Origin: an uncultured Bacilli bacterium
GTDB lineage: Bacteria; Bacillota_I; Bacilli_A; RF39; UBA660
NCBI GenBank assembly: GCA_934167875.1
Contig: CAKPMC010000001.1
Location: 13,634 to 77,633 of the forward strand
Reading direction: 5' to 3'
DNA length: 64,000 nucleotides
This document shows, one piece after another, positions 9,338 to 51,462 of this stretch. Under the pieces are notes generated by a model. It did not search any database. It saw nothing but the letters and a program-made list of their open reading frames with translations, and had not been told where the DNA came from. Within the stretch, counting starts at the first letter, position 1. Every line of letters begins with the position of its first letter. A program made the translations under genes and the position numbers.

Positions 9338-10024
9338 TTATAAATTAATAATTTTTCCATCTTCATAAAAACTATAGTAATCATTATCACCAATTATAAC
9401 ATGGTCAATAATAGGAATACCATTTACTTGTCCTAACTCAACTAAAGAATTAGTCAAACGAATATCTTCTCTACTAGGATTTACATTTCCACTAGGATGA
9501 TTATGAACACAAATAATACCTGATGCACTACATAAATAAGCATTTTTAAATACTTCTCTTGGATGTACTACACTACGATTTAAAGTCCCCATAAACAATA
9601 ATTTCCTTTCAATCAATTCTTTTCTTTGATTAACATATAAGCAATAAAAATACTCCTGTTTTTTATCATATAATTGATACTTCATATAATTATAAATACT
9701 GTTTGAAGAAGTAAGTAATAACTTATCACTAAAGTTATCATTCATATAAATTCGTTTACCAAGTTCAACAACACTAAGTAAAGTAAGAGCTTGTACTAGT
9801 CCTATTCCTTTTATCTGCTGTAACTGTTCCTTAGTTGCATCTTTTAAATTATTTATCCCATTAAAATAATTAAGAACATTATTACTAATCTCTTTTACAG
9901 ATAGTTTGCCATTACCAGTTTTTAGTATTATCGATAGTAATTCTTCATTAGATAAATTTTCTTTTCCATATTCCATTAACCTTTCTCTAGGTCTTTCTTT
10001 TAGTGGTAAATCTTTTACCTTCAT
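9338..10024 (-). CDS. radC: RadC-like JAB-domain protein (UPF0758)
   Basis: The JAB metalloprotease motif HNHPSGNVNPSREDIRLT and the helix-hairpin-helix-like N-terminal region are present. The gene sits upstream of mreC, as in the Bacillus maf-radC-mre cluster. Confidence 0.85.
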   Translation of the reverse strand: MKVKDLPLKERPRERLMEYGKENLSNEELLSIILKTGNGKLSVKEISNNVLNYFNGINNLKDATKEQLQQIKGIGLVQALTLLSVVELGKRIYMNDNFSDKLLLTSSNSIYNYMKYQLYDKKQEYFYCLYVNQRKELIERKLLFMGTLNRSVVHPREVFKNAYLCSASGIICVHNHPSGNVNPSREDIRLTNSLVELGQVNGIPIIDHVIIGDNDYYSFYEDGKIINL

Positions 10025-10065
10025 AATATCACCTAGTTATATTATTTACATAATTTATAAAATAT

Positions 10066-10518
10066 CTAAGGATTTAAAACAATTTCATCATAAGTAGCTA
10101 AAACTGTCTTTAAGACCGAATTAACTTCATCTATATTTTTACTACTTTCTAGTAAAACATCATACTGATTAAGCTGATTTATAAAATCAGTATTATTCAA
10201 ATTACTATGTTTAATATAAATATCTATTCCTTTGTCTTTATACATTTTTTTAATATTTTCAGCTATTTTTAAATTACCAGTCATTCCAATATAAGAATAG
10301 TATTTATCCCCTTCTTTTACTGTAATCTTAGTATCAATTCCATCTATCTTAGTATTACTAACATCATTATTAGTATAGGCACCACACTGTAAATAATAGA
10401 TATTATCATTTTCACTAAATACTAGTCCATTAACACCATATTGATTAAAAATAAATGAAGCACATAAATATCCAAGTAAAACTGCACATATTATAGGAAT
10501 AATTAAATTCATCTTCAT
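10066..10518 (-). CDS. Hypothetical membrane-anchored protein (150 aa)
   Basis: An ORF with an N-terminal hydrophobic segment and no recognisable motif. Confidence 0.45.
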   Translation of the reverse strand: MKMNLIIPIICAVLLGYLCASFIFNQYGVNGLVFSENDNIYYLQCGAYTNNDVSNTKIDGIDTKITVKEGDKYYSYIGMTGNLKIAENIKKMYKDKGIDIYIKHSNLNNTDFINQLNQYDVLLESSKNIDEVNSVLKTVLATYDEIVLNP

Positions 10519-10566
10519 ATCATCACCACTATTAGCATACGCTACTGGTTATAAAAAAAATGTCGA

Positions 10567-10600
10567 AAAAAAATAAGTACTTGAAATTTGTACTTATTTT
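10567..10600 (-). terminator. Putative rho-independent terminator after proS
   Basis: On the minus strand a hairpin AAATAAGTAC...GTACTTATTT is followed by TTTTTTTT. The stem is AT-rich. Confidence 0.4.
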
Positions 10601-10609
10601 TACACAATT

Positions 10610-12043
10610 TTAATATTGTTTTCCCCAATATACTAAGTGAGTAGCTTTTTCTCCACAAACTAAACATTTACCATCGTGATTATCACCATCAAATGGAATA
10701 CATCTAGAAGTAATTCCAGTCTCTTCTTTTATTTTATCTTCACATTCACGTTTTCCACACCAATAAGCCTTGATAAAGCCATTTTCTTTTTCAGCTAAAG
10801 CTTTCATTTCTTCTAGTGTTAAAACTGATTTAGTCATTTCATCTCTTCTAATTTTTGCACGAATATACATACTATTTTGAATTTCTAATAATAGTTTAAT
10901 TACCTCTTCAACTACACTATCTAATGTAACATGAACTTTTTCTAAAGTGTCACGTCTTACCAAAACACATAAATCATTTTCCAAATCTTTTGGTCCAAAT
11001 TCAATACGAACAGGTATTCCTCTCATTTCAGCTTCAGCAAATCTAAAGCCAGGAGATTTTTCACTATCATCAACTTCACAAGTAATACCAGCAAGTTTTA
11101 AGCTTTTAGCTATCTCATAACTTTTATCTAATACTTCAGTATTATTTTTACCAATTGGAATAATAGATACTTTAATAGGTGCGATATTAGGAGGAAGAAC
11201 TAATCCATGATCATCACTATGAGTCATAATCATTGCTCCAATAATACGTGTTGTCATTCCCCAAGAAGTTTGAAACATATATTTTTCAGTATTATCCTTA
11301 TCCATAAATTTCATATTAAAAGCTCTAGCAAACCCATCACCAAAATAATGACTAGTACCAGATTGTAACGCAACACCATTATACATTAAAGCTTCAATAG
11401 TATATGTAGCTTCAGCTCCGGCAAATCTTTCTTTTTCTGTTTTTTCACCCTTTATAACTGGTATAGCTAGTACTTCTTCACAAAAATCAGCATATATATT
11501 TAACATTTTTAAAGTTTCTTCTTTAGCTTCTTCACTAGTAGCATGGACAGTATGACCCTCTTGCCATAAAAATTCTCTACTTCTTAAAAAAGGACGTGTT
11601 GTTTTTTCCCAACGTACAACACTACACCATTGATTATATAGTTTAGGTAAATCACGATAACTTTTAACTATATTGGCATAATGTTCACAAAATAAAGTTT
11701 CACTAGTAGGTCTTACACAAAGTCTTTCTGGTAATTCCTCATTACCTCCTTGAGTTACCCAAGCAACTTCTGGAGCAAAACCTTCAACATGATCTTTTTC
11801 CTTTTGTAGTAAAGATTCAGGTATAAACATTGGCATATAAACATTTTGATGACCTGTTTCTTTAAATTTTTTATCAAGCTCTTTCTGAATATTTTCCCAA
11901 ATAGCAAAACCATAAGGTCTAATAATCATACAGCCTTTAACACTAGAATAGTCAATTAATTCTGCTTTTTTACATACATCAGTATACCATTTAGCAAAAT
12001 CAACATCACGGCTAGTTATTTCTTTTAATTCTTTTTGATCCAT
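10610..12043 (-). CDS. proS: Prolyl-tRNA synthetase, archaeal/eukaryotic-type class II
   Basis: About 478 aa ending in the conserved C-terminal Tyr (YWGKQY) with class II motifs. AGGAAGTGAG precedes the ATG at 12043. Confidence 0.93.
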
Positions 12044-41035: not shown

Positions 41036-41112
41036 AATATCCTTCCTAACTCTATTTTAATATATGAGTTAAGAATAGATTTGGACAAAAGAAAAAGCTT
41101 CAATATTGAAGC

Positions 41113-41785
41113 TTACTCACTTATTACCATTCCATTTTCATCGAATTTGTAGCCACCTGTAACTTGAGGTTCAGGTGTATTATTAACAGTTTCGGTTTCA
41201 TCATTAATTACAGTACCGTTTTCATCAAATTGGTATTGAGGAATATTTGTAGCTGTAGAATTTTCATCAGTACCATCGCTAATAACTACTCCATTTTCAT
41301 CGAATTTATAATTATTTGTAGTATCTTGAGCAGGTGTACTATTAATAACCTCAGTACCATCATCAATCACAGTACCATTTTTATCGAACTTGTACTGAGA
41401 AGTAGTTGAAGTTTCAGAAACATTATCAACGCCATCACTAATAACAACACCATTCTCATCAAACTTATAATTATTTGTATCTTGAGGTGTAGGATTACTA
41501 TTAACAGTTTCAGTTCCATCACTTATTACGAATCCGTTTTCATCAAATTGATACTTAGGAGTACTAGCAGAATTTTCATTAGTTTCAGTACCATCACTAA
41601 TAACTACACCATTTTCATCGAATTTAAAAATATTAGCTTTATCCTGATTTGTAGCTATTTCAGTACTATATTCATTTTTAAAAGGATTAACAGTCTCTAC
41701 AGGTTCATTACTTACCAAATTTTCTTCAAGACTAGTATTTCCATCAAAAACAACAACTCCATTTTCGTCAAATTTTAAATTTGCC
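41113..41785. repeat. Tandem coding repeats of about 80-90 bp (roughly 8-9 units) inside the 41113-42084 gene
   Basis: Repeated DNA units containing TTCATCGAATTT/TTCATCAAATTG and GTACCATC are visible in this span. The spurious plus-strand ORFs 41164-41409 and 41482-41778 arise from it. Confidence 0.7.
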
Positions 41786-42084
41786 ATAAATGCTTTTCGA
41801 TCATAATCTTTATCAGGTTCTTCTATATTTCTATTTAATGCGTTATTAAATACTTCATATTGATCGTTTTTAAAGCCAAGAAAATCAATATTTTCAATTT
41901 GAACATGATTAAAAGAAATTACCTGTGAAGGTAAAAGTAAACCTTCTGGATAAACACATCCCTTATAATCATACATAGTAACATTTCCATTATATTCAAT
42001 AGAAAAATAGCTAATAACCATTATTTTTTTATTATTGCCTTTCAAAGTACACACAGTACCTATAGGTAAATATTTATTATTCAT
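41113..42084 (-). CDS. DUF4176-like N-terminal domain protein with a C-terminal array of about nine tandem FDENG(V/T)VISDGTE repeats
   Basis: The N-terminal 90 aa (LPIGTVCTLKGNNKKIMVISY...YDYKGCVYPEGLL) resemble DUF4176 proteins found in T7SSb loci. The rest is a visible 25-30-aa repeat (YKFDENGVVISDGTE...). Confidence 0.55.
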   Translation of the reverse strand: MNNKYLPIGTVCTLKGNNKKIMVISYFSIEYNGNVTMYDYKGCVYPEGLLLPSQVISFNHVQIENIDFLGFKNDQYEVFNNALNRNIEEPDKDYDRKAFMANLKFDENGVVVFDGNTSLEENLVSNEPVETVNPFKNEYSTEIATNQDKANIFKFDENGVVISDGTETNENSASTPKYQFDENGFVISDGTETVNSNPTPQDTNNYKFDENGVVISDGVDNVSETSTTSQYKFDKNGTVIDDGTEVINSTPAQDTTNNYKFDENGVVISDGTDENSTATNIPQYQFDENGTVINDETETVNNTPEPQVTGGYKFDENGMVISE

Positions 42085-42149
42085 ATCTAACCTCTCTTTA
42101 TTCTTTTACTAAATTATACAAAAAATATTAATATTTTTCAACACATACT

Positions 42150-42458
42150 TTATATTTTACTAACCCTTTTAGTGATTTCAGTTACTGGTAACACACTAGC
42201 ATATTTTTCTAACTCATCTGATGTTTTAGTAATTATATTTATGCTATTAGTTAAATGGTCTTGTTCATCAATAAGACTATTTTTAGCATTACTTAAATCT
42301 GACTTTATTTGAAGTAATTGTGTTTTATATTTGAAATTACCTGGAATAACAGTAGAATCCATAAGATTAAGTGCTGGAGACAAACTACTAATGCTATCTT
42401 TTAGATTAGGAATGATAGTATTTTGAATCTGTTCTGGATTAAATTCTAATTTAGCCAT
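42150..42458 (-). CDS. Small helical T7SS-associated protein (102 aa)
   Basis: Its start overlaps the upstream stop as TAATG. TGAGGTGAAAG precedes the ATG. Predicted all-helical. Confidence 0.45.
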   Translation of the reverse strand: MAKLEFNPEQIQNTIIPNLKDSISSLSPALNLMDSTVIPGNFKYKTQLLQIKSDLSNAKNSLIDEQDHLTNSINIITKTSDELEKYASVLPVTEITKRVSKI

Positions 42459-42745
42459 TATTCTTTCACCTCATTGATTTTCTGTTCCATGGTATCAGCA
42501 TAATCTAATAAGAACTTGCCATAATTATAAATATTACTTTTTATATTTAAATATTGAAGTTTATCTATTTTAGCAGTCTCTGTAAATAAATTAGCACTAG
42601 CACCAACCCATTCACCAGTAGTAACATTCATATTATTTATGCGAGTAAACATTGTAGTAATAATTTCATTCATTTCTTTTGATAATTCTATTATTTCAGT
42701 ACCACATTCTCTTATTTTAGTTGTATCTATATTTATTTGAGTCAT
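42458..42745 (-). CDS. WXG100 family secreted protein (EsxA-like)
   Basis: At about 95 aa it carries the central WXG motif (TGEWVGASANLF) in a helix-turn-helix-sized protein. AAGAGGTG precedes the ATG (MTQINID). Confidence 0.65.
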   Translation of the reverse strand: MTQINIDTTKIRECGTEIIELSKEMNEIITTMFTRINNMNVTTGEWVGASANLFTETAKIDKLQYLNIKSNIYNYGKFLLDYADTMEQKINEVKE

Positions 42746-42801
42746 AAACACCTCTTATTTTAATAAAAGCTAGTAACAATATGTCCTAGCTTTTATTATC
42801 A

Positions 42802-43296
42802 TTATTTAGTTAAACTAACATTTTTCATTTTATTATTACTTGCAGGTTTGCTAGGTTTAGAAACATTAGGTTTACTAACTGAAGGTTGACTAGGTTTAGA
42901 ATTTGAACTAGGTGTAGGATTACTACTAGAAGAAGAATTTTGATTACTAGCAGCTTGCTGTGCAGCTAATCTAGCAGCTTCTTCCTGAGCCCTACGTTCA
43001 GCTTCTAAACGTTGTTCTTCCTGACTAATAGCATTACTTATATTTCTAATCTTAACTTCAATCTCAGGTAAAATCTGATTAGAAATTAAGTTGCGATCAT
43101 TAACAATAATATTTCTACTATTACTAATAACACCATTATCACCACTATTATCATCAATACTAAAGTATGATTCAATATTAGAACAAACTTCCAATGAATC
43201 TTTACTTTTATCTAAATAATTACAAACCTGTGATAATATATTTTTTAAATTAATATATTGATTTCTTTCATTTCTTAAAGCATTTAAATCTGCCAT
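42802..43296 (-). CDS. Hypothetical T7SS-locus protein with a coiled-coil and a Ser/Pro-rich tail
   Basis: The ORF has an AQEEAARLAAQQAA coiled-coil followed by a SSSSSNPTPSSNSKPSQPS low-complexity C-terminus. Confidence 0.4.
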   Translation of the reverse strand: MADLNALRNERNQYINLKNILSQVCNYLDKSKDSLEVCSNIESYFSIDDNSGDNGVISNSRNIIVNDRNLISNQILPEIEVKIRNISNAISQEEQRLEAERRAQEEAARLAAQQAASNQNSSSSSNPTPSSNSKPSQPSVSKPNVSKPSKPASNNKMKNVSLTK

Positions 43297-43313
43297 AATT
43301 TTAACCTAACAAA

Positions 43314-43763
43314 CTACTTATGTTCAGTATATTTTTCTTTTGAATCAACTGCTGATGCCATATTATCATAATTACTTGCAACACGATTAATATTAGTTTG
43401 ATATGCTTCATAAACATATTGTAACTTATCAGAAAAAGCTAATAAGCCACTAACATAAACTGACCAAGCCTTTCTTACGCCTTCAATATATTTTTTTACC
43501 GCTGCTTGTACTTCATCACTTTTAAAAGCACCATCTGCACCAGCTAATGGATCAATAGCATCAATATTAGATGTAACATTGTCAACATATTGTCTAATAG
43601 CATCCCTCATTGCAGGAATTTTATTAGCATTAATACCAACAACACTATAATCACCTTCAATATAGTTACTTTGAAGTTCATTATCCATACCTCTAGTAAC
43701 ATCAAAATTTCTATCTTTTATTTCATTTCCAGCATTAAAAGCTGCTGCTAAACCCCAAGCCAT
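43314..43763 (-). CDS. Hypothetical T7SS-locus protein (149 aa)
   Basis: The ORF has a strong RBS GAGGAGGAAA and no recognised motif. Confidence 0.45.
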   Translation of the reverse strand: MAWGLAAAFNAGNEIKDRNFDVTRGMDNELQSNYIEGDYSVVGINANKIPAMRDAIRQYVDNVTSNIDAIDPLAGADGAFKSDEVQAAVKKYIEGVRKAWSVYVSGLLAFSDKLQYVYEAYQTNINRVASNYDNMASAVDSKEKYTEHK

Positions 43764-43833
43764 ATATTATTTCCTCCTCACTATAAATCATAATACTAAT
43801 ATTTAAAACCAAAAATATTTTTATTTATAAATT

Positions 43834-44160
43834 TTAACCTTCATAATTATCATATACAATAGAATCAATATTAAAGTAATTATTCATAAGTGTTGTAAGT
43901 TCGGTTTCAAAATTTTTCTTTTGAACATCAATGTTTTTTATTATTTGATTAAGATTTTCTTTAAAATCTTTAATGAAATTATCTCTTGAAACACCTTGCC
44001 AACCATCACTTATAACAGATTCCAAATAAGAATAGCCATCAGTAAGATCACGCCCAGTCCTATTAAAAATCTGATCAGATAGATTATCAATATAACTTTG
44101 CATACCAGCTTTAGATACTCCAATACTAAGATCACCTATGCCTAAATCTTCACCATACAT
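43834..44160 (-). CDS. WXG100-like small protein
   Basis: At 108 aa it carries the central SDGWQGVSRDNF motif. TGGGAGATGA precedes the ATG. Confidence 0.55.
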   Translation of the reverse strand: MYGEDLGIGDLSIGVSKAGMQSYIDNLSDQIFNRTGRDLTDGYSYLESVISDGWQGVSRDNFIKDFKENLNQIIKNIDVQKKNFETELTTLMNNYFNIDSIVYDNYEG

Positions 44161-44488
44161 TTTTATTCATCTCCCATTCTCTACTATTTGCTAAAATATT
44201 ATCAGCAATATTTTCAGCACCAACTTTGTAAGATTGCTTTACTTTAACAAAATCACTTGCATAGCTTAAAATATTTTGATTAATAATTTGATAATATTCT
44301 GCCTGCTTTTTAAAATTACTACAAAAGATTTGATTCACTTCTGAATTAAAATAATTTTTAGAATTATCAACCAAAATTTGAAGTTGATTGAAAATATTAT
44401 TTAACTTATCAGCATATTCAATTATATCTGTAGCCATCCTATCTAAGCCAATTTCATTAACACCACTAACATTATACTGTTCATGCAT
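44150..44488 (-). CDS. Small helical T7SS-associated protein (112 aa), first gene behind the internal promoter
   Basis: The ORF follows a TTGACA-18-TAAAAT promoter, and its stop overlaps the next gene. Confidence 0.45.
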   Translation of the reverse strand: MHEQYNVSGVNEIGLDRMATDIIEYADKLNNIFNQLQILVDNSKNYFNSEVNQIFCSNFKKQAEYYQIINQNILSYASDFVKVKQSYKVGAENIADNILANSREWEMNKNVW

Positions 44489-44527
44489 TATACTATCACC
44501 ATACTATCAAACTTCTATCTTACAATT

Positions 44528-44561
44528 AAATTTTACACATTGTTAAACATAATTGTCAATA
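44528..44561 (-). promoter_or_regulatory. Sigma-A-like promoter (TTGACA-18-TAAAAT) driving the WXG100/small-protein cluster
   Basis: On the minus strand there is a perfect -35 TTGACA (44554-44559), an 18-nt spacer and TAAAAT (44530-44535). It lies between the yukD terminator and the 44488 start. Confidence 0.5.
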
Positions 44562-44565
44562 TATA

Positions 44566-44601
44566 AAAGAAAAAAATGTAAAATTTAATTTTTTTTTACA
44601 T
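44566..44601 (-). terminator. Rho-independent terminator after esaB/yukD
   Basis: On the minus strand a hairpin AUGUAAAA-10-nt loop-UUUUACAU is followed by UUUUUUCUUUU. Confidence 0.55.
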
Positions 44602-44608
44602 TTTTCAA

Positions 44609-44863
44609 CTAAAACAAAACTATTTTACTACCATTTCTAATGTTAGTATCCAAAACTGTTGCATCCATATTATAGGCATTTCCTGTACTAACATCATATA
44701 AATTGGTCTTATTACTAACAGTATAAACACCACCAGTTAGTTCACTAACTGCTTTAGAAAGCAAAATAATTACATTTCCAATCTTTCTATTAATAGGAAG
44801 AAAAACATTATAAGATTCTTCTACTTCTGGAACAATCAACTCTACTAATATTTTATTTTTCAT
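44609..44863 (-). CDS. esaB: EsaB/YukD ubiquitin-like T7SS protein
   Basis: An 84-aa beta-grasp-sized protein (KILVELIVPEVEESYNVFLPINRKIGNVIILL...GSKIVLF). AAGGAAGTGG precedes the ATG, which overlaps the essC 3-prime end by 11 nt. Confidence 0.75.
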   Translation of the reverse strand: MKNKILVELIVPEVEESYNVFLPINRKIGNVIILLSKAVSELTGGVYTVSNKTNLYDVSTGNAYNMDATVLDTNIRNGSKIVLF

Positions 44864-47800
44864 TTTGTTCCACTTCCTTTTCAACTACATGTTTAAATAC
44901 TGTATAATTACCATCATTAATAGCAAAACCCATATAAGGGAAATTTATTTTTCTATCATCCATAGTCAAATTAGGAATATTAAATGCTAACTGACTACCA
45001 ACATCCTCACCTAACCAAATACCATATAAAGAATTAATATTAGATTGATACCATACTTCCAATTGAAGATTTTTATAAGAATCATATGTATCTACTAAAA
45101 TAAAATGAATATTAGTAGCATCACCTATATTTTGAAATAAATGATTTAAAATAGCTTGACCATTCTGTGATAGATATTTTCTTAACATACCAATACCTAA
45201 GAAAACATAATAATAATCATTTCCATTATTTTTACTAGATAAAGCTTCATTATGTATTTGAATTACAGCTTGATCAAAATCTTTTTTATAACATTTAATA
45301 TCATTTTCTTTATCATATGCATTAACAAAATCGCAAATAGAAATATTAGCACCAGCTTTTTTGATTAGTTCTATTATACTAATAACAAAACTCATCCTAT
45401 CATAATTCATACTTCTAGTAACTATAGAATTATAGACAGACATAAAATTATAAGTTATAGGTTGCTTAGTAGCTACATTATATCCAATAGGTATTTTATC
45501 TAAGGTATTATTCTGCTCTAATAGATCTAAAGTAACTACTTTAGGAAGTACTGGTATCTTCCTAGCTCTAGAAGTATAAGCATTATTTAATTGTTTTGAA
45601 ACTTCTCTCATAACATTAGTCATATCTTTACGTGGAGCAAAACTAGCTGTTTGAAATTCATAAGCTGTATCATTCATAGCTATCAAACCTCTACCAAAAA
45701 TCTTAGATGGAAATAATCCTCTTGGTGCATCAACTACTGTCCTATATTCAGTCTCATTTGGTATTTGTAAACATAAACGATTAGCAAAGTTTTGTACCAT
45801 TCTACCTCTAACACCATTAGTTGAAATCGCACTAATAATAAATACTATACCGTATTTAACTCCATCTCTATATAAGTTTTGCACAGCTTCAGATAATTTA
45901 GAAAAGTTTTCCACAAAAATTTCATAACTATTAATCATAGTAACGATAAGAGGTAATTTTTTTCCACTGTTTTGTAGATATTCATTATAACTACCTGCAT
46001 AATCTTTAAATAATTCTTTTCTTCTTTCAATTTCTTCATTAATCATTTCAAAGATATCATAAACTAAATCACTGTTTTCAATAGTAGCCACTTCCCCAAC
46101 ATGAGGAATATTATAAAACATCTTCAATGTCTCACTACCACAATCAATTATATACATATTAACTTCATCTGGAGTATGTTCAGCCATCATAGAGAAAATC
46201 ATTGTAGATAATAAATTTTCTTTACCACTACCAGTCTGTCCATATATTAAAGTATTACCTTTATTAGTTAAATCAACATTTAATATTCCTTGTTCCTGAT
46301 TAGAAGGATTATCATATTCACCAATAACTGGATTTATAACATAAGGAACTGGTTTATAATTATATTTCTTTTTCAAGTTAAATAAATTAATATCACTAGG
46401 TAACGCATCAAGCCATAACTTCTTAGTAACAATATTTTCTCTAGTACTTAAATTATAAATATATTTAACTAAGTTAGTTAACTGTTCACCATAATTAGTA
46501 TCATTATTTTCTTTAACCATATCTTTAATTGTTTTAACTGGATAACCAACATCGTTAACGAAATTAATAGAATCATCTACTTTTTTAATAATTCTATCTG
46601 AAGGAACATATTTAGCCCCACTCCATCCAGATTGTCCAATATCAAAATAATCATTATAACCAACTTGTAAATAAAATCTTCCTGTTTCCTTTATACTAGC
46701 TGCTTCTGGTCTTTTTAACATTTCCATACTATCAGATCTATCTTGAACCTTCAAACAAACTTTAAATTTTGAATTACTCCAAATTTGATCATTTACTACT
46801 CCACTAGGTTTTTGGGTAGCAAGTATCAAGTGAAGTCCTAAACTACGTCCAATACGAGCTGTAGAAATTAATTGTTGCATAAACTCTGGTTGCTGACTTT
46901 TTAATTCTGCAAACTCATCACTAATAATAAATAAATGTGCCATAGGTTCACTAACTGCACCCTCACGATATAATTTTTGATACTTATAAATATCAATAGT
47001 ACCTTCACCTAATTTATCTCTAACCTCATTAAATACTCTTTGTCTTCTCTTAAGTTCTGAATCAATAGATACTAAAGTTCTATTCATTTCAGCTGTATCT
47101 AAGTTAGTAATAGTACCAATTAAATGTGGGATTTTAACTCCTGTTTCTTTATTCTCAAAAGCACCAGCTAAACCACCACCCTTATAATCTATCAAAACAA
47201 ACTGTACTTCATAAGGATGATAATTAACTGCAAGAGATAAAATATAAGTAATTATAAATTCACTTTTTCCACTACCAGTCATACCAGCAATTAAACCATG
47301 TGGACCATGAAATTTCTCATGTAAATCAAGTTTAAACTCTTCACCATTAGCATGTACTCCAACTGGAGTAGCTAAAGATACAACTGGATTATTATTTTGC
47401 CAACGAGATAAGATATTTAATTGTTCTATCTTAGATACTTTCATCATTTCTAAGAAAGCTAATGAATTAGGTAATACCGAAATACCATCTTTAGTAACTA
47501 CTGGTATATTAGCTAACTTATTACTTATTTTTCTCATATCTATATCAAGTGCATATTCATTATTAAATTTAATAATTTCTTTTTGATCTTCTTTTTCAGA
47601 TATAATAGTACCATTCTTTTCTGTTATTTCAATAAATGCATCACATTTACCAGGTAAGTTCTTAATCTTATCACCAATACATAAATAAGAAAATCCATAA
47701 TTAGTAGCTGTCTTTAATAATAAATCAATTATAATAGAATTCTTAGCTAAGTTATAATCATCATTAATAACTAAATAGTAAGGACTATTCTTTTTATAAG

Positions 47801-49484
47801 ATTCTTTTTTAGCTACTTCTTCTTCATCAGCAACAGTATTAGTAGAATCTTCTGTTGATTTACTAGAAGCTTTACGTTTTTTATATTCATCCTCTAAATA
47901 ACTAGAAATTTCACTTATTTCATTCAAATTAGTAGCAAAAAATCTTGTTTCTTTATCATCACTAAAACAGTGTGGTAAATACTTAGCATATTCCCATTTA
48001 TCTTTATTAGCATCATTAGTCATAATAACTATTTTTAGATCAATAGAACTATGTAAGCTAACTAACTGTAGTATTAAACTATTAATATATTCTTGTTCAT
48101 GACTATTATTTATAATGAGTCCTGTTACAGGATTATCTAATAATGAAACTGTAATAGGTATATTATTTAAATTCTTTGCTTGTTCACTAATATTATAAAC
48201 CTGATTAAGTAGATCATCTTCATCAAGTGTAAAATGTCTTTCAGGTGCATCAATAACTATTTTAGATAAACAAGTACCACTACCTAAACGTACTGTCAAA
48301 AAATCATAATCTGTTATTAAACGACTCCAAAACTTAATATTAGTTATTTTATTAGAAGTAGTTAACATTTGATAACATTCAATCGCACTTGGATTATTAT
48401 CTTTTAAAGTTTGTTCTTGCTTCTTTTTTATATCCATTATTTGATTTTGCTTTTCTAATATATAACTAGTATATTTAGATACTCTTAATTTTTCTCTTTT
48501 AGCAGCCTGTTTTTTCTGATACTTGGAAGCAATTCTAGGTATAATCAAACTACCAAATATCATAGTAACACACATAACTATTTGTGGAAGTGAAGACATA
48601 AGCGTTTTACTACCGGTAGAAAGTCCATAAATAACCGTATAACCTGTCATTAAAGAAGAAGCAGCCATAGTTATACTAGAACCAATTGACAAAAATAATG
48701 GCATATCTTCTTTTATTTCTGATTGTGGCACAGGTTCTATTTTTACATATTCTTCTTTTAGCTGATCATCCATTCTAAGCGTATGATAAAAATAATCATT
48801 TTCCTGATATAAGTTCAAATTATTATCAGTATCATTAGAAGTTTGGTAATTAGAATTATCGGTATCTCTTTGATATAAATTAAGTTTTTGAACAGCTACT
48901 AATTCATTAGGATTATTAACATTTAAAAAGCTACCCATCCAAATAATTTTTAAACCATTGATAAATATTATATCTCCAATATTTAAAATCTTACTTTTAA
49001 CTAAATTATTATTAACATATATCCTAGAATTATCTTGTAATGAATTTAGTTTCCAACCAGTTTCATTTTCACCAATAGCTTTTACTATTTCAGCATGATT
49101 TGGTTGAATAAAAGAATCTTTATAACAGATTTCATTATCATTACTACTACCTATTCCTATTCTAGAAAGATTATCAAATGATAAATTATAATTATTAGTA
49201 TCTTTAACAGGTAAAGTATATAAAACTATATTTTTTTCTATTCCTTCAATATTTAAAAAATAATATTGATAATCTTTTAATTCAACGCTAAAAATTTTAG
49301 TATCATTTTCAATAATACTAAAAGTATCATTACTTTTTAAAATCCATTTTCCATTCTCTGCTTCTATATTTAATTGAATTTCAAAATTATCATCAATTAC
49401 TTCATTAATAGAAACAGATTCATCTATCTTTTGAGGTAGTTTAAATACCTTTAAAGTTTCCTTACCAAGTAAATATAACTTCAT
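44853..49484 (-). CDS. essC: EssC (FtsK/SpoIIIE-family T7SSb ATPase, 1543 aa)
   Basis: N-terminal FHA-like repeats, TM segments and three P-loop ATPase domains (GMTGSGKSEF, GQTGSGKENLL) are present. TAGGAGTTGG precedes the ATG. Confidence 0.93.
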   Translation of the reverse strand: MKLYLLGKETLKVFKLPQKIDESVSINEVIDDNFEIQLNIEAENGKWILKSNDTFSIIENDTKIFSVELKDYQYYFLNIEGIEKNIVLYTLPVKDTNNYNLSFDNLSRIGIGSSNDNEICYKDSFIQPNHAEIVKAIGENETGWKLNSLQDNSRIYVNNNLVKSKILNIGDIIFINGLKIIWMGSFLNVNNPNELVAVQKLNLYQRDTDNSNYQTSNDTDNNLNLYQENDYFYHTLRMDDQLKEEYVKIEPVPQSEIKEDMPLFLSIGSSITMAASSLMTGYTVIYGLSTGSKTLMSSLPQIVMCVTMIFGSLIIPRIASKYQKKQAAKREKLRVSKYTSYILEKQNQIMDIKKKQEQTLKDNNPSAIECYQMLTTSNKITNIKFWSRLITDYDFLTVRLGSGTCLSKIVIDAPERHFTLDEDDLLNQVYNISEQAKNLNNIPITVSLLDNPVTGLIINNSHEQEYINSLILQLVSLHSSIDLKIVIMTNDANKDKWEYAKYLPHCFSDDKETRFFATNLNEISEISSYLEDEYKKRKASSKSTEDSTNTVADEEEVAKKESYKKNSPYYLVINDDYNLAKNSIIIDLLLKTATNYGFSYLCIGDKIKNLPGKCDAFIEITEKNGTIISEKEDQKEIIKFNNEYALDIDMRKISNKLANIPVVTKDGISVLPNSLAFLEMMKVSKIEQLNILSRWQNNNPVVSLATPVGVHANGEEFKLDLHEKFHGPHGLIAGMTGSGKSEFIITYILSLAVNYHPYEVQFVLIDYKGGGLAGAFENKETGVKIPHLIGTITNLDTAEMNRTLVSIDSELKRRQRVFNEVRDKLGEGTIDIYKYQKLYREGAVSEPMAHLFIISDEFAELKSQQPEFMQQLISTARIGRSLGLHLILATQKPSGVVNDQIWSNSKFKVCLKVQDRSDSMEMLKRPEAASIKETGRFYLQVGYNDYFDIGQSGWSGAKYVPSDRIIKKVDDSINFVNDVGYPVKTIKDMVKENNDTNYGEQLTNLVKYIYNLSTRENIVTKKLWLDALPSDINLFNLKKKYNYKPVPYVINPVIGEYDNPSNQEQGILNVDLTNKGNTLIYGQTGSGKENLLSTMIFSMMAEHTPDEVNMYIIDCGSETLKMFYNIPHVGEVATIENSDLVYDIFEMINEEIERRKELFKDYAGSYNEYLQNSGKKLPLIVTMINSYEIFVENFSKLSEAVQNLYRDGVKYGIVFIISAISTNGVRGRMVQNFANRLCLQIPNETEYRTVVDAPRGLFPSKIFGRGLIAMNDTAYEFQTASFAPRKDMTNVMREVSKQLNNAYTSRARKIPVLPKVVTLDLLEQNNTLDKIPIGYNVATKQPITYNFMSVYNSIVTRSMNYDRMSFVISIIELIKKAGANISICDFVNAYDKENDIKCYKKDFDQAVIQIHNEALSSKNNGNDYYYVFLGIGMLRKYLSQNGQAILNHLFQNIGDATNIHFILVDTYDSYKNLQLEVWYQSNINSLYGIWLGEDVGSQLAFNIPNLTMDDRKINFPYMGFAINDGNYTVFKHVVEKEVEQNEK

Positions 49485-49555
49485 ATTTCCAACTCCTATT
49501 ATTCTATATAAATAATACCAAAAGTTGGAAATGATTTCAATGTCTTTTCCGGATT

Positions 49556-50470
49556 TTACTTAAAAGTTTTAATAGTTTTAATCATATTATCAAAGTTATT
49601 TTTATTCTTTTTATTTTTAAAGATAAATCTAATCTTTTTTAAGTAAACTGTATTAGCTAATACTTCTATAATTGTTACTAAAATTATTAATAATAATTCT
49701 TCTTCTATCTTATTATTTAAACTAGGAATATAAATATTTCCTTCCTCTATGATATTAGCTTCGTATTTATATAAATCAAGCATTAACTTTCTATTTATTA
49801 TTTTTTCCTCTATAGGTTTAATTTTAATATTAGAGTAATATTTAGAAATATCTAAATAATTATCAGTATAATTACCATCCAAGGTAGATATACCATTTTT
49901 AATTATCTTTTGAATATTTTTAAAACTACATCCTAAGTTAGAAGTATGATAATAAATATATGCAAGTTTAATAAAGGTATAATTCATAGGTATATAATCA
50001 TTATCAAAATATAGTTTAGATTTTAAACAAAAAGGACATAAACATAAATTATTTTTATTTACGCTTTTAATCTTATCAACATAAAAAATATTTAAACAAT
50101 GATAACATATAGCTATATTATTAGTATCTAATTTTTCTCTATATGGTAAATTAGTTTTTAAATTTTTTATTTCATCTAACATTTCTATTAAAGAATAATC
50201 ACTACTAGGAAAACTATTATCAGGTATTTCTAAAAGTTTTTCTATAATAATATTTAAATGGTTATTTTTAATATTTTTAGTTGTTACTATTTTATATAAA
50301 ATAATTAATAATTCTTCTTCTAGTAAATTATTTATTTCTTTATTTTTTAATATTTGGTACTGTTTTTCATAATTTTTAGGCATGGTTATAAAATAATGAA
50401 CATCTTTGTATAAGTCATTTATCTGAATAATTTTAAAGTTTTTATATTTTTCTAACCACCAGTATTTCAT
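49556..50470 (-). CDS. Hypothetical protein (304 aa) with a Cys cluster (CYHC...CLCPFC); extremely AT-rich
   Basis: The ORF has RBS CAGAGGTAAAC. Its composition is noticeably more A/T- and Lys/Asn/Ile-rich than its neighbours. Confidence 0.45.
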   Translation of the reverse strand: MKYWWLEKYKNFKIIQINDLYKDVHYFITMPKNYEKQYQILKNKEINNLLEEELLIILYKIVTTKNIKNNHLNIIIEKLLEIPDNSFPSSDYSLIEMLDEIKNLKTNLPYREKLDTNNIAICYHCLNIFYVDKIKSVNKNNLCLCPFCLKSKLYFDNDYIPMNYTFIKLAYIYYHTSNLGCSFKNIQKIIKNGISTLDGNYTDNYLDISKYYSNIKIKPIEEKIINRKLMLDLYKYEANIIEEGNIYIPSLNNKIEEELLLIILVTIIEVLANTVYLKKIRFIFKNKKNKNNFDNMIKTIKTFK

Positions 50471-50485
50471 GTTTACCTCTGTTTA

Positions 50486-51340
50486 TTAATTTTTTGTAAA
50501 TTCTAATTCTCTATTATTTGTATTCCAAACTAAAATTAATTTGTTTTTACTGTTTTTATCTAATTTAAAAGTAAAACCATTTTTTATTAAATCAATTGTG
50601 TCATCATAGTTTGTTCCATCTTCTTTATATTTATTTTTATAAGTAATTACTTTATAGTAATAGTAATCATCATCACCATATAATGTTTCATCTTCGCCTA
50701 AATCAATGCCTTCATCTACACTATATTTACCATAGTAATAATTATCTATTAAAGTATCACTATTAGCATATAAATAGTAATTACCTTCATTATCTAAATA
50801 AAGTAAATGATCATATTCATCTAACCAATAGCCATGGAGTTTATTTTCATAATATATAGATTCAAAAACACTAAATAAATCATCTTTAAGAGTTGTTTCA
50901 TAACCATTAGAGTATACCATTTTAATATTTCCAACAAATATAAAAATAGAAATCATTAAAGATAATATAAAAGTAATAATAGTAGTAATAAGTGAAAAAA
51001 CGCCAAAATTATGGGAAGTATATTTTAGTCCTACAATAACTAAAATAAGTGAAACAATACTAAAACCTATTCCTATCCAACAGTTCCATATACCAACAGG
51101 TATAGCTAATATTCCTAGTATTAATCCAATTAAACTATTATTATTTCTAGGTGTAGAATTAAGTTCATCTATATTACTTTTAGTATTATTACTATAATTT
51201 TGTTGATAATAATATTGATCCTGATGAGTATCTATTCTAATACTTTTAAATGGATCATCATAAGTATTAATACTATTTCCACAATAAGGGCAAAAATTAG
51301 AATTATCATCTATTATACTATTACATTTTAAACATCTCAT
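50486..51340 (-). CDS. Zinc-ribbon membrane protein (N-terminal double CxxC, two TM helices, C-terminal Tyr/Asp-rich domain)
   Basis: MRCLKCNSIIDDNSNFCPYCG is followed by two hydrophobic helices. AGGAAGTG precedes the ATG at 51340. Confidence 0.5.
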   Translation of the reverse strand: MRCLKCNSIIDDNSNFCPYCGNSINTYDDPFKSIRIDTHQDQYYYQQNYSNNTKSNIDELNSTPRNNNSLIGLILGILAIPVGIWNCWIGIGFSIVSLILVIVGLKYTSHNFGVFSLITTIITFILSLMISIFIFVGNIKMVYSNGYETTLKDDLFSVFESIYYENKLHGYWLDEYDHLLYLDNEGNYYLYANSDTLIDNYYYGKYSVDEGIDLGEDETLYGDDDYYYYKVITYKNKYKEDGTNYDDTIDLIKNGFTFKLDKNSKNKLILVWNTNNRELEFTKN

Positions 51341-51462
51341 ATTATCACTTCCTAATAACATTATAACAAACAAATCATAATTTTTAACAAAATTTAAAGA
51401 TAGTTAACTTGTTTAAAAATAAATATTAAGATATAATTGATTTATTAAAATTGGAGGCAACA

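Follow-up and report, generated by a model that had tools for sequence, protein, structure and literature searches.

The gene at positions 41113–42084 of a 64,000-nucleotide stretch of DNA from an uncultured Bacilli bacterium (contig CAKPMC010000001.1; hereafter the window) encodes a 323-residue protein in which an N-terminal DUF4176 domain is followed by a long acidic tail carrying eight copies of a short FDENG motif, and in a conserved arrangement it closes a type VIIb secretion system (T7SSb) operon. Judged by its sequence, the product belongs to the DUF4176 (Ltc) chaperone family. We propose, with moderate confidence and on the basis of profile matches and predicted structures, that it may be an Ltc-type chaperone or adaptor of the T7SSb that stays in the cytoplasm and uses its tail as a multivalent docking array. 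An earlier note on this DNA had described a DUF4176-like protein fused to FDENG repeats at the edge of a type VII secretion system (T7SS) locus, and both the fusion, with the repeats C-terminal to the domain, and the position in the locus hold. The gene is a single open reading frame (ORF) on the minus strand, with the following parts:

41113–42084, minus strand: complete coding sequence from the ORF list, 323 residues with an ATG start, DUF4176 domain and acidic hairpin-repeat tail
41827–42084, minus strand: DUF4176 domain (res. 1–86), a predicted SH3-like β-barrel, then a helix (res. 74–83)
41740–41778, minus strand: hairpin motif 1 (res. 103–115), LKFDENGVVVFDG, kept by every family member, short paralogs included
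41680–41688, minus strand: NPF element (res. 133–135) in the linker between motifs 1 and 2, from alignments A1 and A2
41116–41628, minus strand: regular array of hairpin motifs 2–8 (res. 153–323), whose 25/28-residue alternation forms a 159-bp super-repeat

The N-terminal region is matched by the DUF4176 profile PF13780 over residues 5–77 (profile positions 1–72 of 74), with a score of 75.4 bits against a cut-off of 25 and an E-value of 3.8e-21, and the same profile matches all 18 aligned relatives. Among PDB sequences it matches just one, 9DCS (E 1.5e-6), a small DUF4176 protein that is associated with TelD in S. intermedius. We built an AlphaFold2 model of residues 1–170 from a 108-sequence alignment, in which residues 1–86 reach a predicted local distance difference test score (pLDDT) of 85–94 and are predicted to fold into a four-stranded antiparallel sheet or barrel plus a helix, like 9DCS, 9DCR, and 9DCT. 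DUF4176 proteins are dimeric T7SSb chaperones that stabilize LXG toxins by binding to a disordered amphipathic helix, and they fall into two classes, one small (70–130 residues) and one large and bilobed (200–250 residues), in which DUF4176 forms the C-lobe (Gkragkopoulou et al. 2025, PMC12478183). A stabilizing role of a DUF4176 protein has also been reported in S. suis (Wu et al. 2025, PMC12482557). The binding sites of the family are conserved in structure and divergent in sequence (PMC12478183), and because of this divergence sequence alone cannot settle dimerization or client binding.

The C-terminal 220 residues are predicted to be a disordered acidic chain that carries eight 10-residue β-hairpins, not a folded domain. 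The sequence FD[EK]NG occurs eight times, at residues 105, 155, 180, 208, 233, 261, 286, and 314. Motifs 1 and 2 lie 50 residues apart with the conserved NPF element in between, and copies 2–8 are spaced by 25 and 28 residues in alternation (75/84 bp), generating a super-repeat of 53 residues, or 159 bp; the protein ends directly past the eighth hairpin (...YKFDENGMVISE and the stop codon). The hairpin core reads F-D-E-N-G-V-V-I and turns at Asn-Gly. In two AlphaFold runs, each motif forms an isolated two-stranded hairpin, with strands x-F-D and V-V-I connected by an E-N-G turn (pLDDT 55–77), while the linkers between hairpins stay below pLDDT 50. The strands of motif 1 were placed by AlphaFold2 at residues 103–105 and 111–114, with a pLDDT of about 74. 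Residues 101–323 have a net charge of −34 and a pI of 4.05, and Arg, His, Trp, Cys, and Leu are all absent from residue 151 onward. Neither a signal peptide nor a transmembrane segment was found in the whole protein, where the maximum 19-residue hydropathy is 0.72, and the protein has no WxG motif. Compared with T7SS substrates of the WXG100 or LXG type, it has an SH3-like barrel and a disordered tail instead of a helical hairpin or an LXG domain.

At the DNA level, Tandem Repeats Finder reported a period of 159 with 2.3 copies, 73% matches, and a score of 397, and a DNA repeat search returned eight copies of a 41-nt core spaced by 84/75. The 159-bp copies are 67–75% identical, the 39-nt cores average 73% identity, and exact repeats within the gene reach 18 nt at most. 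The same peptide cores are written with differing codons (TTT/TTC, GAA/GAG, AAT/AAC, GGA/GGT), and we therefore regard the units as old duplications kept by peptide-level selection, not as fresh slippage. In a six-frame translation of the window, the wider motif pattern has one other match, which is unrelated, against eight FD[EK]NG sequences within 220 residues of the tail; a chance origin of the repeat is excluded. The earlier note had counted about nine near-perfect repeats, visible as 80–90-bp DNA repeats and prone to copy-number variation. The repeats are indeed visible in the DNA; they number eight, however, in units of 75/84 bp with a true DNA period of 159 bp, and the description as near-perfect suits the ~10-residue peptide core but not the DNA. 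The predicted copy-number variation is borne out by the deletion alleles and the range of motif numbers described below, but not as rapid slipped-strand switching, for which the DNA is too diverged. The statement that the repeat has no named family also stands, on the sub-threshold or partial matches to MORN_2, RHS_repeat, and DUF6980 given below.

Conservation is concentrated in the hairpins. Compiled from 252 copies of the motif in 54 proteins of the family, the sequence logo is [Y/I/F/L]-[K/Q/E]-F(100%)-D(96)-E(76)-N(86)-G(100)-V(61)-V(92)-[I/V]-[S/A]-D(62). The start-to-start spacing in these proteins has a minimum of 20 residues and a mode of 24–29 and extends up to 108, which argues against a periodic solenoid and favors independent hairpin modules on flexible spacers. 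In about 20 of the 54, the chain ends 9–11 residues past the Phe of the last motif. Residues F105, D106, E107, N108, G109, and V111 are invariant in alignment A1, and conservation reaches 90% or more at N133, P134, and F135 in alignment A2 (108 sequences), F135 being invariant in A1 as well. When 18 relatives with identities as low as about 56% are compared, 31% of the columns vary in the hairpin cores, 44% in the DUF4176 domain, and 82% in the linkers. Read from these columns, the cores are shown to be under purifying selection and the linkers to drift. The motif core remains near-invariant across proteins whose domains are just 30–50% identical, which points to a conserved partner and not to variable toxins.

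The identical 323-residue protein is found on 15 contigs, the longest of 141 kb, and the five places shown (ENA and Logan) represent five different human-gut samples and two assembly pipelines with an unchanged gene context. That the assembler collapsed or mis-joined the repeat region has a negligible probability in our view: short-read metagenome assemblies are error-prone at repeats, and the homolog in locus L027 has a run of X within its array, but the recurrence of the identical sequence across these contigs, samples, and pipelines has already refuted an artifact for the eight-motif allele, and the divergence of the repeat DNA allows unambiguous assembly from 100–150-nt reads. The collapse or frame change in an independent assembly that the earlier note had named as refuting evidence was not seen there. 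The 90% identity cluster of the protein contains 31 members of 298–326 residues. One of the alleles, P0130, has seven motifs through an in-register deletion that fused units 5/6; another, P0002/P0135, has seven through a different in-register deletion that fused units 4/5; and in P0133 a linker looks converted from another unit in an apparent conversion event. These alleles were seen among relatives 81–97% identical, where most close alleles keep eight motifs, and the motif number ranges from 2 to 12 across the wider family. Allele comparison thus shows that the repeat number changes through in-register recombination between units. Repeats are also homogenized within single genes, for example in L027 and L008, which indicates concerted evolution.

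The gene resides in a T7SSb cluster, as is typical of the family, with an EssC equivalog 2.8 kb upstream on the same strand. The surrounding features are as follows:

44853–49484, minus strand: EssC, the T7SSb ATPase, with FHA and FtsK/SpoIIIE domains (TIGR03928, Pfam FHA and FtsK_SpoIIIE)
42150–44884, minus strand: seven small upstream genes from the ORF list, of 91, 112, 108, 149, 164, 97, and 102 residues, candidate substrates or clients
42091–42141, minus strand: possible expression signals of the DUF4176-tail gene itself, from a promoter scan and direct reading
41085–41114, minus strand: hairpin resembling an intrinsic terminator, AAGCTTCAATATTGAAGCTT with a T-run, which overlaps the stop codon and lies between the gene and feoAB

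EssC scores 958.8 bits against the equivalog model TIGR03928 (T7_EssCb_Firm), for which the cut-off is 778.4. Despite this clear match, EssA, EssB, and EsaA were not detectable by Pfam or NCBIfam at 44853–51373, and the T7SSb core machinery may be reduced or divergent here. The 97- and 108-residue products contain WxG motifs and give weak WXG100/ESAT-6 matches. The 91-residue product has a weak ubiquitin-like Pfam match only (E 0.033) and may be YukD/EsaB-like. The neighbors that usually accompany the family, an LXG toxin or DUF443 proteins, are missing: no LXG, Lap, or DUF443 match was obtained among the seven small upstream genes. An 898-residue protein from a related locus (L041, see below) used as a phmmer query found no match anywhere in the window, and the idea that the 102-residue upstream protein is an LXG-like domain stub related to it was dropped (BLASTP E 0.063, not significant). 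Beyond EssC lie two further, unassigned genes on the same strand, upstream of essC, which encode a conserved 304-residue protein with Cys pairs and a 295-residue zinc-ribbon membrane protein.

At the other end of the operon, feoA and feoB follow downstream on the same strand, past the terminator, which was found by a scan (1 site against 0.2 expected) and also read directly from the sequence. A promoter-like TTGAAA-17-TATAAT at 42141–42113 (11/12 match in the promoter scan) and a ribosome-binding site GAGAGG at 42096–42091, read from the sequence 6 nt before the ATG, could give the DUF4176-tail gene its own expression signals; the promoter candidate is weak, since the AT-rich region holds no excess of matches of this kind (9 against 13.7 expected). 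Plus-strand ORFs at 41164–41409 and 41482–41778, inside the repeat, have low-complexity translations and were judged antisense by-products.

The same arrangement recurs in related genomes. A degenerate-pattern scan over genomes that each represent one species yielded 48 loci, nearly all from uncultured Bacilli metagenome-assembled genomes (MAGs) of human (Hadza, Brazil), rabbit, mouse, chicken, and rumen guts; the closest relative in this genome-collection scan, 54% identical, comes from an uncultured Bacilli MAG of a Hadza gut. When the proteins of the window were compared by phmmer, the order EssC, 91-residue gene, gap, 112, 108, 149, 164, 97, 102, and DUF4176-tail gene was kept in about 35 of the 48 loci. 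In all, about 45 loci of gut Bacilli MAGs have this gene at the end of a T7SSb operon. In most related loci the gap holds a lipoprotein-like gene of about 565 residues, with an N-terminal signal that ends ..LSSC and no family match (for example L002:6013–7710). The strain of the window is without it, since only a 120-bp gap (44489–44608) separates the 91- and 112-residue genes. Twelve loci carry two tandem DUF4176 paralogs at the operon end, a short one of about 190 residues with two motifs and NPF and a long one with up to 11 motifs. These loci (L008, L010, L014, L016, L022, L024, L025, L027, L028, L030, L034, and L037) have the pair around locus positions 9900–11700, and the up to 11 repeats of their long paralogs are near-identical. 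A second locus type, L041:9992–13983, comes from the same MAG as L024 and encodes a 184-residue DUF4176 protein, then two WXG100 genes, then the 898-residue protein, a presumed toxin without a match among curated families. The 184-residue protein has one full FDENG motif and two IPPIGPGLPGYVAP (PIGPGLPGY) motifs. A full-length search returned 474 homologous clusters at 90% identity (E <= 1e-3), and among the 120 clusters listed the most informative name is 'DUF4176 domain-containing protein'.

The motif also occurs outside DUF4176 proteins. We searched residues 151–323 against 1.84 billion representatives at 50% identity (E <= 1e-3) and obtained 192 matches; the DUF4176 domain is present in 98 of the best 150. 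An acidic family of 280–340 residues without DUF4176 contributes five representatives (P0146, P0215, P0218, P0259, and P0261) with 3–7 motifs; their conserved C-terminus is helical and finishes with ..S[NE]MQF. In L044:9507–10813, the start codon of an acidic-family gene overlaps the stop codon of a 97-residue WXG100-like gene, outside any T7SS locus. Two chromosomal ParB proteins of related gut Bacilli also carry the motif, in the form FDxNG and within a long linker rich in Pro and Gln. The first, P0191 (L055:5001–6800 and L056:2113–3912), has three IQFDANGFVVSDGT units there, is encoded in the gene order jag-mnmE-mnmG-rsmG-parB, and is assigned ParB_N and HTH_ParB by precomputed Pfam annotation. 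The second, L048:9230–10855 from MAG UMGS1613, has one LQFDENGVVISA and one PPIGPGLP, its ParB_N and HTH_ParB domains being matched by profile scan. The element P[IV]GPGLPGY co-occurs with FDENG both in DUF4176 tails and in ParB. Across these matches, the motif is shown to be portable among proteins expected to be cytoplasmic, namely ParB, in its linkers, and the WXG100-linked acidic family. Other matches of the tail search are YD/RHS-like lipoproteins and cell-wall-binding repeat proteins with a related Y-x-Y-D-E-N-G core. In P0227 (L054:710–2509), the first 489 residues of EssC (FHA and membrane part) are joined in frame to an FDENG tail, next to genes for trigger factor and DD-carboxypeptidase. 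This protein, on a single 2.9-kb contig, resembles what an in-frame deletion would leave behind and probably marks the loss of everything between EssC and the DUF4176 gene; it was dropped as proof that the motif belongs to EssC.

Named repeat families fit the tail poorly. The MORN repeat variant MORN_2 (PF07661) scores 14.9 bits on the DUF4176-tail protein against a cut-off of 29.6, and the hairpins are separate and spaced by 20–108 residues; the same profile matches 11 of 18 relatives, with a best E-value of 1.7e-13. The RHS/YD repeat (PF05593) gave no match at E <= 0.1 for the DUF4176-tail protein, and reached 23.5 bits against a cut-off of 22 only on the relative without DUF4176 in L044. 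DUF6980 (PF22400, 99 positions) sums to 38.7 bits against a cut-off of 27, with no single stretch passing and each covering positions 29–53, and is flagged as faint in the precomputed table; by these profile scores the likeness is at motif level only. Three readings of the motif itself were rejected. An export signal of the YxxxD/E or FxxxD type as its defining feature fails on Y (39%) and E (76%), which are not conserved positions, and on the repeats of L027, which read LQFDANG. A phosphothreonine ligand ('DGTE') of the FHA domains of EssC would depend on a Thr that is unconserved, and the L027 unit is without Ser or Thr. An EF-hand or dockerin-like calcium loop does not agree with the sequence, where Gly occupies loop position 4 and not 6 and position 5 is hydrophobic.

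The protein differs from the characterized members of its family in both architecture and gene context. MQE10_09270 of S. intermedius GC1825 (PDB 9DCS, TelD-associated) has 104 residues and no tail, whereas the present protein adds a 220-residue acidic tail with eight motifs; its gene lies beside DUF443 immunity genes and downstream of an LXG toxin, whereas the present gene ends a core operon with no LXG toxin nearby. In LtcA and LtcB (PDB 9DCR, 9DCT, and 9MNO), the additional mass is a folded N-terminal α/β lobe and DUF4176 makes up the C-lobe; the present protein reverses this order, with DUF4176 first and a disordered repeat tail as the additional C-terminal mass. The ltc genes sit between lap genes and the LXG toxin gene (lap1-lap2-ltc-LXG), unlike the present gene. 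Beside the small and the large bilobed classes, the protein represents a third DUF4176 architecture, a small-type domain with a disordered multivalent hairpin tail. This repeat-tailed form is not mentioned in PMC12478183, PMC12482557, or the 2026 review PMC13492133, and a literature search for the FDENG motif found nothing relevant; the combination of DUF4176 with a hairpin-repeat tail is an architecture without description in the literature searched. The hairpin itself shares an aromatic-x-aromatic-D-x-N/D-G-hydrophobic-hydrophobic β-hairpin core with MORN-variant (PF07661, YwqK-type), RHS/YD (PF05593), and cell-wall or choline-binding repeats. Those repeats abut, pack as continuous sheets or shells, and are mostly extracellular, whereas here 8 to more than 90 acidic, disordered residues separate one hairpin from the next, the carriers are expected to be cytoplasmic, and the scores of the DUF4176-tail protein fall below the family thresholds. 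T7SS export motifs, YxxxD/E in T7SSa and FxxxD in Lap1 of T7SSb, are likewise short and acidic/aromatic, and many copies here read Y-K-F-D-E, formally YxxxE; in contrast, the invariant residues of the present motif are F, D, N, G, and V, and it is a multi-copy hairpin, not a single helix-flanking signal.

The role that we favor, a chaperone or adaptor with a docking tail, would work as follows. The DUF4176 fold of residues 1–86 would dimerize, by homology with LtcA, LtcB, and MQE10_09270 of S. intermedius, and would take hold of a T7SS substrate by its hydrophobic or amphipathic helix, so that the substrate stays stable until export. Since no LXG toxin is encoded here, one of the small, conserved helical proteins from the genes just upstream is the probable client. 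The hairpins would be multivalent docking motifs ('stickers on spacers') for a conserved cytoplasmic partner or for each other, and their docking could concentrate chaperone and client at the secretion machine, with changes in repeat number tuning the valency. The earlier note had offered substrate recognition as a role of the repeats, a task that by homology would fall to the DUF4176 domain. Several points weigh against our proposal. Partner, client, dimerization, and cellular location are all things that we infer, and in the window the gene lacks the neighbors, an LXG toxin or a Lap pair, beside which the function of DUF4176 was established. The motif resembles repeat types that are extracellular (YD/RHS, cell-wall-binding, and MORN-variant). 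AlphaFold2 confidence in the tail is low, and single-chain AlphaFold2 is blind to binding-induced or inter-chain folding. The presence of the motif in ParB, moreover, argues that the partner may not be T7SS-specific, which weakens the step of docking at the secretion machine.

In a possible but doubtful alternative, the FDENG hairpins bind each other or a lineage-specific organizer and so gather the T7SS chaperone, ParB, and the acidic family at one site or condensate, T7SS being one use of a general localization code. The motif in chromosomal ParB linkers from two independent representatives (three copies in P0191; one, with PPIGPGLP, in L048), the second motif that accompanies it in DUF4176 tails and ParB, an almost invariant core that would fit one conserved partner or self-recognition, and a tail composition of the stickers-and-spacers kind all speak for such a hub; yet the ParB examples number just two, no candidate hub was identified, and the share of DUF4176 proteins among the best 150 tail matches makes the motif overwhelmingly T7SS-linked. 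A specific form of this idea, which we hold to be rather unlikely, is that the FDENGVV hairpin (with P-I-G-P-G-L-P-G-Y) is a portable, lineage-specific localization or assembly code in uncultured low-G+C gut Bacilli, common to ParB, T7SS chaperones, and the WXG100-linked acidic family, and read by a hub protein or through hairpin–hairpin condensates. If true, such a code would tie the type VII secretion machinery physically to the chromosome origin at one cellular site.

The surface-binding role once suggested for the repeats, whereby the protein would leave via the T7SS and attach to the cell wall or to the surface of a target cell in the manner of choline-binding, YD, or MORN-type repeats, is quite unlikely. 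The YD/RHS-like lipoproteins and cell-wall-binding proteins of the tail-only search, the MORN_2 and RHS_repeat matches among relatives, and the resemblance of the Ser/Thr/Asn/Pro-rich acidic linkers to wall-spanning regions are consistent with it. Set against them are the lack of a signal peptide or hydrophobic segment, the sub-threshold MORN_2 score of the protein itself, and the modeled disorder between hairpins, which leaves no packed binding sheet. LtcA and LtcB, furthermore, are both not exported from cells according to earlier published data cited in PMC12478183, T7SSb substrates are helical bundles and not SH3-like domains, and ParB, which binds DNA in the cytoplasm, carries the motif in its linker. 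We consider it very unlikely, finally, that the tail is a neutral low-complexity expansion grown by slippage in a genome of 26% G+C, with only the DUF4176 domain mattering. The motif codons are AT-rich like the genome, the copy number varies from 2 to 12, and the linkers evolve fast, as such an expansion would have it; the cores, however, are at least as conserved as the DUF4176 domain, their peptides are kept while the codons diverge, the motif is retained in the DUF4176-bearing 50%-identity representatives among the best tail matches and in unrelated families, and about 20 of 54 family proteins end 9–11 residues past the Phe of the last motif.

The practical impact is limited for now because the organisms are uncultured. 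The hairpin motif is short, extremely conserved, and portable, and therefore directly testable, and specialists in type VII secretion are the likely interested readers of a function that we infer. The tailed DUF4176 architecture is common in MAGs of gut Bacilli, as the 474 clusters and the composition of the tail matches indicate. Structural and functional work on DUF4176 has tied its chaperone role to LXG toxins (PMC12478183); the present gene is part of a core T7SSb operon, not of a variable toxin island.

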